Shown here piece after piece: positions 28,066-59,357 of a stretch of DNA of 64,000 bases. Source of the DNA: Malacoraja senta (lineage: Eukaryota); assembly GCA_038087875.1 (NCBI GenBank), contig CM075993.1:1924001-1988000 (forward strand), given 5' to 3'. Both the position numbers and the translations under genes were made by a program. Every line of letters starts with the position of its first letter. Position 1 is the stretch's first letter. The notes under the pieces are model-generated. The model saw nothing but the letters and a program-made list of their open reading frames with translations, did no database searches and was not told the DNA's origin.

Positions 28066-28092
28066 CAAAGATCCCCCGCTAAAGGATCTTTG
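28066..28092. mobile_element. 27-bp transposon relic (fused CAAAG termini), putative excision footprint
   Basis: CAAAGATCCC-CCGCTAAAGGATCTTTG flanked by perfect 8-bp direct repeat GTGACAAC (28058-28065, 28093-28100). Ends match the TIR of 58506-58898. Confidence 0.8.
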
Positions 28093-33140: not shown

Positions 33141-33926
33141 TCAGTATACAGGTGATTGTTGGTAGGCATGGACTCGATGGGCTGAAGGGCCTGTTTGCAC
33201 CCAACATTGCTATCATCCAGCCAAGGCCAACATCTTGAATATTATGAATGCATTTCAGACCTTAAATAACAATGTAATGGCTCACACTTCTGTTAACCAG
33301 ATTTGAGGTGCATTTTGGATAGAATCCAACCCTATTAGTTGTCTTGGCTGAATTCGATTTTTAAATTATTTTGTAGCTGAAACAATGTTTATCTTTAGGC
33401 TTTATTTTGATTTTCTTTTATTGATTTGAGTTTTCAAAATTGCAAAAAAGAGGGGATGTGGGATGGAATATTTATCAATAATGTGCCGTTAAATGCTTTA
33501 TCTAATCACCTGTCAAATGTAAAATGAATTGCTGCATAAATCAATAGTATTCATCTTATCTGTGCAGGAAGGAACTGCAGATGCTGGTTTAAGCTGAAGA
33601 TAGACACACAATGCCAGAGTAACTCAGCAGGACAGGCAGCGTCTCTGGAGAGAAGGAATGGGTGACGTTTCGGGTCGAGACCCTTCTTCAGACCAAAGAT
33701 TATAGAGCAGAGCAAGATGCGCAACTCTGCGAAAAAAGCGTAGTATGACATGGGTGATTGTTGACGCCATTTTACTGGACTGCAATTTACAATAATAATA
33801 ATAATAATATTTACAATAATATTAACTAAATATGTGAAGTGATAGATGCTATATAAAGCACTGTTCCCCACAACACGGATTACACCATGGATGATAGAAC
33901 GGATCAATCTTTGGAACGGATTACAC

Positions 33927-34558
33927 CAAGTCAAGTCAAGTCAAGTCTAGTGAGTTTATTGTCATGTGTCTCTGGTAGGACAATGAAATTCTTGCTTTGC
34001 TTCAGCACAACAGAACATAGTAGGCATTTACTACAAGACATTCTATAAATATATACACAATGGTCAATATACTGATAAAATGCAAATAACAGTATTGGCC
34101 AGTAAAGTTCAGTGTTATGTCCGAGCCAGGTTTAATAGCCTGATGGCTGTGGGGAAGTAGATATTCCTGAACCTGGTCGTTGCAGTCTTCAGGCTCCTGT
34201 ACCTTCTACCTGAAGGTAGTAGGGAGATGAGTGTGTGGCCAGGATGGTGTGGGTCCTTGATGATGCTGCCAGCCTTTTTGAGGCAGCGTCTGTGGTAGAT
34301 CCCCTCGATGGAAGGGAGGTCAGAGACGATGATGGACTGGGCAGTGTTTACTACTTTTTGTAGTCTTTTCCTCTCCAGGGCACTCAAGTTGCTGAACCAA
34401 GCCATGATGCAACCGGTCAGCATGCTCTCTACTGTGCACCTGTAGAAGTTAGAGAGAGTCCTCCTTGACAAACCGACTCTCTGTAATCTTCTCAGGAAGT
34501 AGAGGCGCTGATGTGCTTTCTTAATAATGGCATCATTGTTCTCGGACCAGCAAAGATC
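33927..34558 (-). mobile_element. Rex1/Babar LINE 3' fragment
   Basis: RTLSNFYRCTVESMLTGCIMAWF..DPHHPGHTLISLLPSGRRYRSLK..FPTAIRLLN and a (CTTGA)n tail. Confidence 0.88.
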
Positions 34559-34732
34559 TAGATACTAGATACTAGAGGAACATTTCCCGCTGACTCGGGA
34601 GCGCTGACGCTTGAGGCTCTGCCGCCAGACAGAGAGCCTGGTGCCGGCCGGCCGGCCGCCTTCATCTGGTATCGGGGAGACCGAGAATCAGTCCTGGATC
34701 AACTCAGGAGTGGAGGAAATGTCCTCTTCCCC

Positions 34733-34764
34733 CAAAGATACTAGAGGAGCCTCCAGTATCTTTG
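34733..34764. mobile_element. 32-bp transposon relic (fused CAAAG termini), putative excision footprint
   Basis: CAAAGATACTAGAGGAG + CCTCCAGTATCTTTG flanked by CTCTTCCC (34724-34731 plus one extra C, and 34765-34772). Confidence 0.78.
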
Positions 34765-34938
34765 CTCTTCCCTGCGACCTGATGTAAGCGCAGATTGTAT
34801 AACTGTGGAGTCCGTCCCCGCTACCAAAGATGTCGCGTTTTGCATTTAAAAATGGCGGCCGTGACGTTCCGTTACGTACTACACGTCACTCCATTGGATT
34901 TCGGAGGAGTGGTCTATCTTGCTCCTCTAGTATCTTTG

Positions 34939-35290
34939 CTTCAGACTAGAGTCAGGGGGAAGGGAACCAAGAGATATAGACGGGGTTGTAGAGAGATAAA
35001 GAACAACGAATGAAAGATATGCAAAAAAGTGACGATGATAAAGGAAACAGGCCGTTGTTTGCTGTTTGTTGGGTGAGAACGAGAAGCTGGTGCGACTTGG
35101 GTGGTGGAGGGATGGAGAGAGAGAATGCAGGGGTTGTTTGAAGTTAGATAAATCAATGTTCGTACCACTGGGCTGTAAGCTGCCCAAGCGAAATATGAGA
35201 TGCTGTTCCTCCAATTGGCGTTTAGCCTCACTCTGACAATGGAGGAGACCTGGGACAGAAAGGTCAGTGTGGGAATGGGAAGGAGAATTA
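34939..35290 (-). mobile_element. Neptune PLE 3' fragment (continues at about 33562-33693)
   Basis: EEQHLIFRLGSLQPSGTNIDLSNFK, the same C-terminus as the GIY-YIG fragment at 37.5 kb. Confidence 0.82.
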
Positions 35291-38628: not shown

Positions 38629-38914
38629 GTTTAGTTTAGTTTTAGAGATACAGCGTGGAAACAGGCCCTTCAGCCCGTCCAGTCCGTGCCGACCAGCGAT
38701 CACCTGTTCACTAGTTCTATCCTACACACACTGGGGACAATTTACAGAAGTCAATTAACCTACAAACCTGCACGTTTTTGGAATGTGGGAGGAAACCGGA
38801 GCACCCGGAGAAAACCCACGTGGTCACAGTGAGAACGTACAAACTCCGTACAGACAGCAGCTAAGGTCAGAATCGAACCCGGGTCTCTGGCGCTGTGAGG
38901 CAGCAACTCTACCG
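38629..38914 (-). mobile_element. HE1/V-SINE-type SINE
   Basis: Reverse-complement copy whose 5' head abuts the minisatellite. Confidence 0.88.
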
Positions 38915-39303
38915 CCCAGTGTACTTCCTGTCCCAGTGTACTTCCTGCCCCAGTGTACTTCCTGTCCCAGTGTACTTCCTGTCCCAGTGTACTTCCCGTC
39001 CCAGTGTACTTCCCGCCCCAGTGTACTTCCCGTCCCAGTGTACTTCCCGTCCCAGTGTACTTCCCGTCCCAGTGTACTTCCCGCCCCAGTGTACTTCCCG
39101 TCCCAGTGTACTTCCCGTCCCAGTGTACTTCCCGTCCCAGTGTACTTCCTTCCCCAGTGTACTTCCTGCCCCAGTGTACTTCCTTCCCCAGTGTACTTCC
39201 TGTCCCAGTGTACTTCCCGCCCCAGTGTACTTCCCGCCCCAGTGTACTTTCCGCCCCAGTGTACTTCCCGCCCCAGTGTACTTCCTGCCCCAGTGTACTT
39301 CCC
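38915..39303. repeat. 17-bp minisatellite, 23 in-phase units (CCCAGTGTACTTCCYGY)
   Basis: First unit at 38915 and last at 39289 (22 x 17 apart). Variation is concentrated in the last few bases of the unit. Confidence 0.96.
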
Positions 39304-39589
39304 TAACTCTGTTCTGCCTTGAAACATAGAGAAATGTTGGTCTAAAACCATCCGTTTTACTCATCTTTAAATCATGTCATCAGAAACTTATTATCCACCT
39401 AACAGGTGACACTTTGATTTATGAATTTTTTTGGATCAAATTTAATTTAATGAAGAGTTGGATCAACGAGGAACGTTGTGTTCTGATTGTAATTTTGGAA
39501 CGATTGTCTGAAAGAAGCAGCAGATGTTGGAAAGAAATTAACCTGGAAGTTTCCTTCAATCTACGGCAGATTTCCACCAACACTGGCTG

Positions 39590-40695: not shown

Positions 40696-41241
40696 CACTA
40701 ATGCTATGTAGAAAATACAGCACAAAAATAGGACACGAATTGCTGGAGTAACTCAGCGGGTCAGGCAGCATCTCTGGAGATAAGGAACGGGTGACGTTTT
40801 GGGTCGAGATCCTTCTTCAGACTGATTGTCACAATTGTATTCTTAGTCCTCTGAAGACTCATCATTAGCAATGTCTCCCACTGTTCTCAGCCTCATGTTT
40901 ATCCACACATATATAACGCAAGCAACCATTAGAAATCAGCATGTCGCTTCAATGAAACCAACTACCGTGCATGTGTTGATCCAAAGTATCTTCAAAGAAC
41001 AGTTGGCCCTAATTGCTAATAAAATGTTGTATGAGACCGAGATATCCGCATTTAAAGAAATCATTAACAGATGCTTTGATCTGTCGTTTTCACACCTTAC
41101 CCTTCCATATCTCTAGTCTACCTCTCCCCTGACTTTCATCCTGAAGAAGGGTCTCGACCCGAAACGTCACCCACTCCTTCTCCCCAGAGACGCTGCCTGT
41201 CCCGCTGAGTTACTCCAGCATTTGAAAATAAGTACTCCTGT

Positions 41242-41856
41242 TTGAGTACTGTTGGGGGGGACAGCCTTCCTGGGGGTAGCGACAGCGGCCGGGCCTCCGG
41301 CACAGAGACCGGCCCTATTGCTCAGAAGGGTAGGGAAAAGAAGAGGAGGGCAATAGTAATAGGGGACTCTATGGTTAGGGGGTCGGATAGGCGATTCTGT
41401 GGACGCAGTCAGGAGACCCGGATGGTAGTTTGCCTCCCTGGTGCCAGGGTCAGGGATGTGTCTGAACGCGTCCAAGATATCCTGAAATCGGAGGGAGAGG
41501 AGCCTGAGGTTGTGGTACATATAGGTACCAATGACATAGGCAGAAAAAGAGAAGAGGTCCTGAAAGGAGAATTTAGGGAGTTGGGAGGAGAGTTAAGGAG
41601 AAGGACCGCAAAGGTAACAATCTCGGGATTACTACCTGTGCCACGCGACAGTGAGAGTAGGAATGAAATGAGGTGGAGGATAAATGCGTGGCTGAGGAAC
41701 TGGTGCAGCGGGCACGGATTCAAATTTCTGGATCATTGGGACCTCTTTTGGGGAAGGTGTGACCTGTACAGAAAGGACGCGTTGCACTTGAACCCGAGGG
41801 GGACCAATATCCTGGCGGGGAGATTTGCAAAGGCTACTGGGGAGACTTTAAACTAG
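41242..41856 (+). CDS. CR1 ORF1 C-terminal SGNH/GDSL esterase domain (5'-truncated)
   Basis: IVIGDSMVRG (block I Ser), LPGARV (Gly), HIGTND (Asn), DALHLN (DxxH). True start lost. Confidence 0.9.
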   Translation: MSTVGGDSLPGGSDSGRASGTETGPIAQKGREKKRRAIVIGDSMVRGSDRRFCGRSQETRMVVCLPGARVRDVSERVQDILKSEGEEPEVVVHIGTNDIGRKREEVLKGEFRELGGELRRRTAKVTISGLLPVPRDSESRNEMRWRINAWLRNWCSGHGFKFLDHWDLFWGRCDLYRKDALHLNPRGTNILAGRFAKATGETLN

Positions 41857-41861
41857 AACGG

Positions 41862-44795
41862 TTGGGGGGAGGGACTCAAATAGAGAAAGCTAGTAGAAAA
41901 TGTGGGAGGCAGGAGGCAGAGAAGGGAAGCACTCGGACCCAAAATGTAGGGGAGAAAGAAGAAAAAGATAATAAACAGAGAATAAGTGGTGGTGGGTTTC
42001 TTAAATGTGTATATTTTAATGCTAGGAGCATTGTAAGAAAGGTGGATGAGCTTAGAGTCTGGATTGACACCTGGAAGTATGATGTTGTGGCGATCAGTGA
42101 AACATGGTTGCAGGAGGGCTGTGATTGGAAACTAAATATTCCAGGATTTCGTTGCTTCAGGGGTGACAGAATTGGAGGGGCAAGAGGTGGGGGTGTTGCA
42201 TTGCTTGTCAAGGAAGATATTACAGCAGTGCTTTGGCAGGATAGATTAGAGGGCTCGTCTAGGGAGGCTATTTGGGTGGAACTGAGAAATGGGAAAGGTG
42301 TAGCAACACTTATAGGGGTGTATTATAGACCGCCAAATGGGGAGCGAGAATTGGAAGAGCAAATATGTAAGGAGATAGCAGATATTAGTAGTAAGCACAA
42401 GGTAGTGACTGTGGGAGATTTCAATTTTCCACACATAGACTGGGAAACACATTCTGTAAAAGGGCTGGATGGTTTGGAGTTTGTAAAATGTGTGCAGGAT
42501 AGTTTTTTGCAGCAATACATAGAGGTACCTACTAGAGAAGGGGCAGTGCTGGACCTCCTGTTAGGAAATGAGACAGGGCAGGTGGCGGAGGTATGCGTTG
42601 GGGAGCACTTCGGGTCCAGTGATCACAATACCATTAGTTTCAATATAATTATGGAGAGGGTCAGAACTGGACCTAGGGTTGAGATTTTTGTTTGGAGAAA
42701 GGCTAACTTTGAGGAGATGCGAAAGGATTTAAAAGGAGTGAATTGGGACATGTTGTTTTATGGGAAGGATGTAGAAGAGAAATGGAGGACATTTAAAGGT
42801 GAAATTTTAAGAGTACAGAATCTTTATGTCCCAGTTCGTTTGAAAGGAAATAGTAAAAATTGGAAAGAGCCATGGTTTTCAAGGGAAATTGGACACTTGG
42901 TTCGGAAAAAGAGAGAGATCTACAATAATTATAGGCAGCATGGAGTAAATGAGGTGCTTGAGGAGTATAAAGAATGTAAAAAGAATATTAAGAAAGAAAT
43001 TAGAAAAGCTAAAAGAAGATACGAGGTTGCTTTGGCAAGTAAGGTGAAAGTAAATCCAAAGGGTTTCTACAGCTATATTAATAGCAAAAGGATAACAAGG
43101 AATACAATTGGTCCATTAGAGAGTCAGAGTGGACAGCTATCTGCAGAGCCAAAAGAGATGGGGGAGATATTGAACAATTTCTTTTCTTCGGTATTCACCA
43201 AGGAGAAGGATATGGAATTATGTGAGGTAAGGGAAACAAGCAGAGTAGCAATGGAAACTATGAGATTCAAAGAAGAGGAGGTGCGGACACTTTTGAAAAA
43301 TATGAAAACGGATAAGTCTCGAGGTCCTGACAGGATATTCCCTTGGACATTGAGGGAAGTTAGTGTAGAAATAGCAGGGGCTATGACAGAAATATTTCAA
43401 ATGTCATTAGAAACGGGAATAGTGCCAGAGGATTGGCGTACTGCGCATGTTGTTCCGTTGTTTAAAAAGGGTTCCAAGAGTAAACCTAGCAATTATAGAC
43501 CTGTTAGTTTGACGTCAGTTGTGGGCAAATTAATGGAAAGGATACTTAGAGATAATATATATAAGCATCTGGATAAGCAGGGTCTGATTAGGAAAAGTCA
43601 ACATGGATTTGTGCCTGGAAGGTCATGTTTGACTAATCTTCTAGAATTTTTCGAAGAGCTTACTAGGGAAATTGATGAAGGTAAAGCAGTGGATGTTGTC
43701 TATATGGACTTCAGTAAGGCCTTTGACAAGGTTCCTCATGGAAGGTTGGTTAAGAAGATTCAATTGTTGGGTATTAATGGTGGAGTAGCAAGATGGATTC
43801 AACAGTGGCTGAATGGGAGATGCCAGAGAGTAATGGTGGATGGCTGTTTGTCAGGTTGGAGGCCGGTGACTAGTGGGATGCCTCAGAGGTCTGTGTTGGG
43901 TCCACTGTTGTTTGTCATGTACATCAATGATCTGGATGATGATGTGGAAAATTGGATTAGTAAGTATGCAGATGATACTAAGATAGGTGGTGTGGTGGAT
44001 AATGAAGTAGATTTTCAAAGTCTACAGAGAGATTTAGGCCATTTGGAAGAGTGGGCTGAAAGATGGCAGATGGAGTTTAATGTTGATAAATGTGAGGTAC
44101 TACATCTCGGCAGGACAAATCAAAATAGGACGTACATGGTAAATGGTAGAGAATTGAGGAATGCAGTTGAACAGAGGGATCTAGGAATAACTGTGTATAG
44201 TTCCCTGAAGGTGGAATCTCATGTAGATAGGGTGGTAAAGAAAGCTTTTGGTGTGCTGGCCTTTATAAATCAGAGCATTGAATATAGAAGTTGGGATGTA
44301 ATGTTAAAATTGTACAAGGCATTGGTGAGGCCAATTCTGGAGTATGGAGTACAATTTTGGTCGCCTAATTATAGGAAGGATGTCAACAAAATAGATGGAG
44401 TACAGAGGAGATTTACTGGGTTTCAGCAACTAAGTTACAGAGAAAGGTTGAACAAGTTAGGTCTTTATTCTTTGGAGCGCAGACGGTTAAGAGGGGACTT
44501 GATAGAGGTCTTTAAAATTATGAGCGGGTTAGACAGAGTTGACGTGGATAAGCTTTTTCCATTGAGAGTAGGGAAGATTCAAACAAGGGGACATGACTTG
44601 AGAATTAAGGGACAGAAGTTTAGGGGGAACATTAGGGGGAACTTCTTTACTCAGAGAGTGGTAGCTGTGTGGAATGAGCTTCCAGTGGAAGTGGTGGAGG
44701 CAGGTTCGATTTTATCCTTTAAAAATAGATTGGATGGGTATATGGACGGGAAAGTAATGGAGGGTTATGGTCTGAGTGCAGGTAGATGGGACTAG
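41862..44795 (+). CDS. CR1 ORF2: APE endonuclease plus reverse transcriptase
   Basis: YFNARS, ISETWL, GDFNFP, LDLLL, SDHN (APE); NYRPVSLTS, QHGF, MDFSKAFDKVPH, YADD (RT). Open for 977 codons. PQG is changed to PQR and there is a probable short in-frame deletion at RRFTGF. Confidence 0.95.
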   Translation: MGGGTQIEKASRKCGRQEAEKGSTRTQNVGEKEEKDNKQRISGGGFLKCVYFNARSIVRKVDELRVWIDTWKYDVVAISETWLQEGCDWKLNIPGFRCFRGDRIGGARGGGVALLVKEDITAVLWQDRLEGSSREAIWVELRNGKGVATLIGVYYRPPNGERELEEQICKEIADISSKHKVVTVGDFNFPHIDWETHSVKGLDGLEFVKCVQDSFLQQYIEVPTREGAVLDLLLGNETGQVAEVCVGEHFGSSDHNTISFNIIMERVRTGPRVEIFVWRKANFEEMRKDLKGVNWDMLFYGKDVEEKWRTFKGEILRVQNLYVPVRLKGNSKNWKEPWFSREIGHLVRKKREIYNNYRQHGVNEVLEEYKECKKNIKKEIRKAKRRYEVALASKVKVNPKGFYSYINSKRITRNTIGPLESQSGQLSAEPKEMGEILNNFFSSVFTKEKDMELCEVRETSRVAMETMRFKEEEVRTLLKNMKTDKSRGPDRIFPWTLREVSVEIAGAMTEIFQMSLETGIVPEDWRTAHVVPLFKKGSKSKPSNYRPVSLTSVVGKLMERILRDNIYKHLDKQGLIRKSQHGFVPGRSCLTNLLEFFEELTREIDEGKAVDVVYMDFSKAFDKVPHGRLVKKIQLLGINGGVARWIQQWLNGRCQRVMVDGCLSGWRPVTSGMPQRSVLGPLLFVMYINDLDDDVENWISKYADDTKIGGVVDNEVDFQSLQRDLGHLEEWAERWQMEFNVDKCEVLHLGRTNQNRTYMVNGRELRNAVEQRDLGITVYSSLKVESHVDRVVKKAFGVLAFINQSIEYRSWDVMLKLYKALVRPILEYGVQFWSPNYRKDVNKIDGVQRRFTGFQQLSYRERLNKLGLYSLERRRLRGDLIEVFKIMSGLDRVDVDKLFPLRVGKIQTRGHDLRIKGQKFRGNIRGNFFTQRVVAVWNELPVEVVEAGSILSFKNRLDGYMDGKVMEGYGLSAGRWD

Positions 44796-58505: not shown

Positions 58506-58898
58506 CAAAGATCCTATAGCGAGCAAGATAGCCCACTCGACGGAAAAGACGTAGTACAGTCACGGGCAGATTCATGGGTAATTTTCGGCCCCATTTCCGT
58601 AACCGGTTTCCGTCTCCGCACCAAAGATCCCGTCATAGCGGAGCAAAGATAACTAGTGCGGAGACGGAATTCGGTTACGGAAACATCCTGGTAAAAATAA
58701 AAGTTATTTGGGAAAAATCTTCTCCTCATTTTCAGAATTATAATTTATTAACACAAACTGTTCCCCCGCAACGCTGATTACACTGCGGGTCGGGTCGGGT
58801 CGGGTTACGGAAATGGATGAAATAAAGGCCCACGTTCTGCTCCATTGCGTGCTACACTTCAGAAGGAGTGGTCTATCTTGCTTGCTATAGGATCTTTT
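58506..58898. mobile_element. CAAAG-terminated MITE (P-like or hAT), 393 bp
   Basis: 33-bp TIRs matching at 30 of 33 positions (58506-58538, 58866-58898). 8-bp TSD CCCTCATA/CCCTCATC with one mismatch. Confidence 0.85.
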
Positions 58899-59357
58899 CC
58901 CTCATCTGTTGCCAGAGATAGACACCAAAAGCTGGAGTAACTCAGTGGGACAGGCAGCATCTCTGGAGAGAAGGAATGGGTGACGTTTCCGGTCGAGACC
59001 CTTTCTTCAGACGGAGAGTCTGGGGAGAGGGAGACGAGAGATATAGACGGGGATGTAGAGAGATATGGAACAACTGAAAGAAAGATGTGCAAAAAAGTAA
59101 TGATGATAAAGGAAACTGGCCATTGTTGGCTGTTTGTTGGGTGAGAATGAGTGCAGGCAATGTGACTAAAATAAGACAACTTTGAAGCTGGTACGACTTG
59201 TGTGTGGGAGGGATGGAGAGAGAGGGAATTATATCATCTGTTGCCAGCTCTCATTTCGCTGCCAGTTTCTTTTGTTACGAGCTATACAGTCAATGGAAAC
59301 ACCATTCTTGATTATTGTAGTAGCCATTTAGCCAATTATGATCAAGCTGTCCACAGG

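Follow-up and report, generated by a model that had tools for sequence, protein, structure and literature searches.

The Drosophila P-element transposase cuts 17 bp inside the TIRs (PMC7776569), and the break left by excision has 17-nt 3' overhangs (PMC5466332). Among 34 isolates in which such breaks had been repaired, the cited parts of the latter study list three with 17+17 joints, one with a 17+16 joint and 14 with short microhomology relics (PMC5466332). A natural 27-bp scar, made up of 12+15 nt from two ends and interpreted as a footprint, is described for BuT5, a P-associated MITE of Drosophila mojavensis, in the sections cited here (PMC3355041, PMC3698922). The 17-nt figure is given, in the portions of the literature examined, for the fly enzyme only.

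Here we describe a 32-bp relic composed of two TIR tips in a window of 64 kb (the whole stretch of DNA that was analysed). The relic is genuine and belongs to a known kind of feature, and no earlier report of one was found for such a host; the fly footprints of the same kind limit the surprise. An origin as an excision scar is likely. The account that we favour, with moderate confidence, is that of an old P-element-type scar which arose in a founder copy and was later amplified along with its host element. The relic behaves like a P-element footprint, while its assignment to the P superfamily is not established, as the defining transposase was not found.

The relic and its host element

Contigs from four of the 20 listed runs (X15, X3, X4 and X2), from four related organisms, were aligned to positions 33660-34990. 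These runs come from organisms other than the source or of unnamed relation to it (best shared-word fraction 0.52), and contig depth in them does not equal copy number. The host element, the relic and the second member of the TIR family have the following features (evidence in brackets).

33686..33693, + strand: left target duplication of the host, CTTCAGAC (sequence)
33694..34938, no strand assigned: non-autonomous host element with two different TIR variants, in a high-copy repeat (sequence)
33694..33727, + strand: left TIR of the host, a different variant of the same family (sequence)
33930..34566, - strand: LINE 3' piece within the host (PF09004 on 34118-34564; X15 contig joint)
34567..34579, + strand: inner TIR stub (X15 contig joint and sequence)
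34724..34731, + strand: left 8-bp target duplication of the relic, CTCTTCCC, followed by an extra C at 34732 (sequence)
34733..34764, no strand assigned: 32-bp relic of two head-to-head TIR tips (sequence, null model, relatives)
34765..34772, + strand: right 8-bp target duplication of the relic, CTCTTCCC (sequence)
34906..34938, - strand: right TIR of the host, about 33 bp, the variant matched by the relic (sequence)
34939..34946, + strand: right target duplication of the host, CTTCAGAC (sequence)
58506..58898, no strand assigned: 393-bp MITE of the same TIR family, with 7 of 8 duplication letters matching (sequence)

The relic forms an imperfect palindrome, or hairpin. Its left part is identical to the TIR read inward from 34938 over 18 of 18 nt and its right part matches the TIR at 14 of 15 nt. 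The initial annotation had parsed it as 17 + 15 nt with one substitution in the right part. The substitution is there, and the parse is valid, but the left match reaches 18 nt, so a parse of 18+14 is equally valid. A chance origin is excluded. In 200 windows simulated under a Markov-3 model, the longest exact match to the start of the TIR was 13 nt (reached once; mostly 8), and a CAAAGA..TCTTTG relic with 8-bp repeats arose in none of the 200 as opposed to two in the real window. The folding z-score of the hairpin is -3.94, with an equally good fold in 0 of 200 shuffles. These controls confirm the tip-to-tip arrangement between the CTCTTCCC copies and the significance of the TIR match, which the annotation had left to randomized sequences. 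Two other interpretations of this stretch were rejected. Positions 34733-34938 have the perfect 18-nt arms of a separate 206-bp MITE, but the flanks form no duplication. A mobile mini-element of 32-34 bp would, by reasoning alone, have its own middle cut by a 17-nt stagger. A search of 33600-35000 against Rfam gave 0 matches.

The host has TIRs and a target duplication, carries no transposase and exists in many copies, as is characteristic of MITEs and non-autonomous elements. Summed contig depth at 34875-34919 ranged from 63,390 to 506,480 across the four runs, most single listed contigs having a depth of 12-50. The CTTCAGAC 8-mer is present singly in an uninterrupted copy of the host's flanking repeat near 58905-59100. 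More than 1000 contigs per run depart from the window directly after CTTCAGAC at 33693, which is likely the usual end of a shorter flanking repeat.

The four ends at 33694, 34938, 58506 and 58898 have in common a TIR of about 33 bp as well as a related subterminal stretch. The host's own two ends do not carry the same TIR variant, being identical for only 7 nt from the tip. The LINE piece accounts for about 637 bp of the host. One X15 contig joins 33929 to 34567 (the letters between are not known), and once the LINE is skipped, 33927-33929 together with 34567-34579 give 16 exact TIR nucleotides. Judging from the sequence, the host is likely a composite of the left part of one subfamily and an inner element of another, the left end of which was cut to a stub. 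At its other junction the LINE piece has a 7-bp duplication (34560-34566 and 34567-34573), and it carries a short tandem tail. The MITE at 58506-58898 ends in T instead of G, and within it a 12-bp inverted repeat (approximately 58610-58667) brackets two CAAAGAT words.

Approximately 52% of the window is repeated within itself, and it contains many LINE reverse-transcriptase frames; the repeats are reminiscent of a skate or ray. A near-intact LINE lies at 41209-44795, with an ORF1 of 215 aa (SGNH/GDSL-esterase) and an ORF2 of 1010 aa (endonuclease and reverse-transcriptase), and a tandem array with a 17-bp period lies at 38847-39371. No DNA-transposase family was found in a Pfam scan of 114 window ORFs (112 of the 126 listed and two short frames), in which curated cut-offs were passed by LINE domains only. 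A 65-aa frame runs across the relic; no candidate protein relative was close to it in length, and none of 31 longer candidates had E<=0.01. Metagenome, viral and prokaryote collections contained no match to a degenerate TIR pattern. The plain 17-mer occurs at 40 metagenome loci, which were dismissed as chance: none continues into a TIR or a relic, and none of the 40 aligned to the window in BLAST at E 1e-4.

Further relics and the mode of excision

The window holds two further two-sided relics and one weaker, one-sided candidate.

28066..28092, no strand assigned: 27-bp relic of the 58506 variant (about 9+16 nt), standing alone and flanked by exact GTGACAAC copies (sequence)
33886..33901, + strand: possible one-sided 16-nt TIR-like piece, weaker (between GATTACAC copies at 33878 and 33919)
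33905..33913, no strand assigned: 9-bp relic of the left-end variant, 3+8 nt with a 2-nt overlap (sequence and simulation)

The 9-bp relic is flanked by exact copies of GAACGGAT at 33897 and 33914 and had no equivalent in 200 simulations (0/200). The one-sided piece matches the TIR at 11 of 16 nt, and 75 of 127108 16-mers match it equally well. The two nested two-sided relics (34733 and 33905) are each most similar to the TIR variant at the closer end of the host, which would fit a family inserting into itself. Positions 33878-33929 form a nested cluster in which the 9-bp relic sits in a 16-nt piece starting with CATGGAT and is followed by the start of the inner TIR stub; this cluster has the look of a hot spot for self-insertion. 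In the three two-sided relics, each of the six halves comprises 18 nt or less of the 33-bp TIR, an outcome with a probability of 0.026 under uniform lengths (a crude null), and no longer tip pair with a flanking repeat was found in a scan up to 199 bp.

Insertion of CT behind 34749 converts the 32-bp relic into a perfect 34-bp palindrome of 17+17 nt. This form is present in all four runs, in 2, 2, 2 and 3 contigs that account for 1, 0.3, 19 and 5% of depth, respectively. Relic lengths thus vary between 9, 27, 32 and 34 bp, a set which, by analogy, would fit within the range of P repair joints. The TIRs at all four ends are about 33 bp long, in line with P-superfamily TIRs of about 30 bp starting with CA. 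We also scored the five reconstructed target sites on the Drosophila P motif, a 14-bp palindromic preference taken from the relevant part of PMC2577343. The score was 35 against a null mean of 22.1 (P=0.0004; post hoc, n=5). The target duplication of 8 bp is exact at 33694-34938, 28066 and 33905, is exact but for the extra C at 34733 and matches at 7 of 8 letters at 58506; duplications of this length are common to P, hAT and others, so they are not diagnostic.

On the P-type reading, an element of the same family would have inserted into a founder copy of the MITE, doubling CTCTTCCC, as the repeat suggests. A long staggered cut would then have spared at most about 17 nt of each TIR on the chromosome, as the Drosophila P mechanism and the ceiling on relic size both suggest. 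End joining could have produced 17+17, 17+15 or shorter joints, or the 32-mer may have arisen from the 34-bp palindrome by a 2-nt central loss. The scarred founder would subsequently have been amplified, a step visible as depth over the relic and its flanks in many of the relatives' contigs and as one bridging contig. The 17+17 form in four of four runs and halves of at most 18 nt would be compatible with the overhang of about 17 nt proposed in the initial annotation. However, the GC at TIR positions 17-18 is self-complementary, and longer ends annealing there would give an identical 34-mer, so 17 nt is not singled out. Further points against the P-type reading are the extra C beside the left duplication, the failure to find a transposase in the 114 ORFs and the lack of a relic-free ancestral form among the contigs listed.

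The same GC microhomology, which explains the 34-mer without a 17-nt cut, favours a rather unlikely alternative in which a hAT-like or unclassified transposase, outside the P superfamily but likewise making 8-bp duplications, moved the family, and the relics arose by aborted gap repair that recopied a few TIR bases or by fold-back collapse of the TIRs without a long stagger. On the five target sites the hAT motifs also fit above chance (Hermes P=0.018, hobo P=0.016; post hoc, n=5), the inner TIR stub fused to internal sequence looks like aborted repair, and no P transposase was found among the 114 window ORFs. What this alternative leaves unexplained is the 18-nt ceiling on all relic halves, and a stronger CTAG microhomology would be expected to yield a 20-mer. 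The TIR length is, moreover, similar to the 27-32 bp of Anopheles P elements. Excision of hAT elements through hairpins usually changes the flanking duplications, and hAT footprints are generally of the hairpin type, without TIR bases. The relics described here retain TIR bases and intact duplications, and hairpin excision alone would not yield such products.

The relic in related organisms

The initial annotation had placed both insertion and excision in this genomic copy, at a late date, and predicted that most members of the family would have a single CTCTTCCC and no relic. The contigs of the relatives make this improbable. Relic depth relative to mean flank depth, read as depth and not as copies, was 2.61 in X15, 0.74 in X3, 3.89 in X4 and 8.99 in X2. 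Summed depth in X15 was 11282 at 34720, 27161 at 34754 and 9566 at 34789, and in X3 it was 6282, 10047 and 20920 at the same positions, so that depth is in the thousands on the relic and on both flanks. A contig from another organism (X2 record 16) bridges 34690-34821, including the relic and both flanks, with 4 differing and 3 gap letters. In X15, record 7 spans 34703-34821 with 30 letters on the left, one below the bridging rule. No deletion or skip of 40-41 nt at the relic was found among 12 of 21 indels and 15 of 471 joints listed (some events being uncounted), and no relic-free copy with a single CTCTTCCC was found among those listed for the contigs of the four relatives. A late event would account for the 18 of 18 nt that the relic has in common with the variant of the nearest end, and the 3.9-fold (X4) and 9-fold (X2) excess of relic over flank depth suggests that part of the relic depth comes from elsewhere. 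This excess hints at relic-like sequences in other contexts.

The undipped depth, the bridging contig and the 17+17 form in all four runs suggest that a founder likely passed on the relic, which was then amplified, and that it was not made here. To all appearances it belongs to an internal module that is common to several species and was amplified with it. The prediction of mostly relic-free copies found no support among the contigs listed for the relatives. The annotation had also stated that a relic fixed in the family consensus would count against it; the relic does look largely fixed in a subfamily, which speaks against an event in this copy and leaves a founder scar untouched. Its sequence of insertion followed by excision is likely right as to origin, given the 17+17 form, the additional relics and the P-like target sites, whereas its timing is likely wrong.

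A T at 34754, which would give perfect 15-bp arms, makes up 67, 98, 44 and 74% of depth in X15, X3, X4 and X2, respectively. The C at this position was rejected as a private change of the window since X15 depth is only 67% T. X15 record 7 and X2 record 16, from different runs, both stop aligning at 34821 and continue in sequence unlike the window, which suggests that the relic-bearing module joins different right parts. In X15, most depth lacks the 8 nt of a local GGCC-type duplication at 34643. At 34678, most depth of all four runs has G.

A scar inside a repeat may represent one old event copied many times and thus cannot be counted as independent excisions. The annotation's view that such scars are common in this genome depends on one stand-alone relic in 64 kb and on indirect depth ratios. 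It is very doubtful that the hairpin is instead a TIR-like motif native to the interior of the family, either as a subterminal binding site or as a by-product of MITE birth, with an incidental 8-bp repeat. The relic is amplified along with its flanks and other internal CAAAGAT words occur at 34825, 58622 and 58644, but it lies between direct repeats of 8 bp, a free-standing relic of the same design is present at 28066 with another repeat and another TIR variant, and the relic lengths differ.

Comparison with known systems

If the P-type reading holds, scar size would point to the cleavage geometry, and hence the likely superfamily, of a MITE without a known transposase, and a P-type long stagger would have acted in a vertebrate germline. 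In a bolder reading, to which we attach only a slim chance, the CAAAGAT family was moved by a non-P transposase with its own stagger of 16-18 nt and its nested and free scars form a genome-wide fossil library of germline end joining in a vertebrate lineage. Long staggered cleavage, called atypical in the P literature, would then have arisen a second time. The milder version, in which a P-type enzyme left the same fossil library, seems to us evenly balanced between true and false. No literature on such scars, on this TIR or on P elements in sharks, skates or other cartilaginous fish was found in a search of partial coverage that included few subscription journals; the TIR family may already be catalogued in Repbase or Dfam, both outside the search.

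Among vertebrates, zebrafish Pdre/THAP9 is P-like, with 8-bp duplications, TIRs starting with CA and excision in cells (PMC10983969). It differs from the family described here in having a 13-bp TIR of other sequence, and the cited part of that study reports flanking deletions and small end cuts upon excision and no 17-nt ceiling (PMC10983969). The P-MITEs of Anopheles gambiae resemble the host element in their 8-bp duplications, with master TIRs of 27-32 bp, and the composite AgaP2-P12MITE likewise has ends from two subfamilies; in contrast to the present case, transposase-bearing masters are known (PMC1562414, according to its cited sections). The word footprint has 0 occurrences in the main text available for that paper (PMC1562414). 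The BuT5 scar is single, lies at an inversion breakpoint and has 9-bp flanks, and the sections cited above mention neither self-nesting nor amplification.

A close match is with the repair junctions of Drosophila P{wa}, in which, as here, TIR tips of up to 17 nt lie between intact 8-bp duplications and the joints include blunt 17+17, near-blunt and short microhomology products, as described in the relevant parts of the two studies (PMC5466332, PMC7776569). Those junctions are laboratory events produced by a known transposase. The relic described here differs from the Drosophila P products in its CAAAGAT-type TIR, in its vertebrate-looking host and in being a scar amplified inside a MITE.
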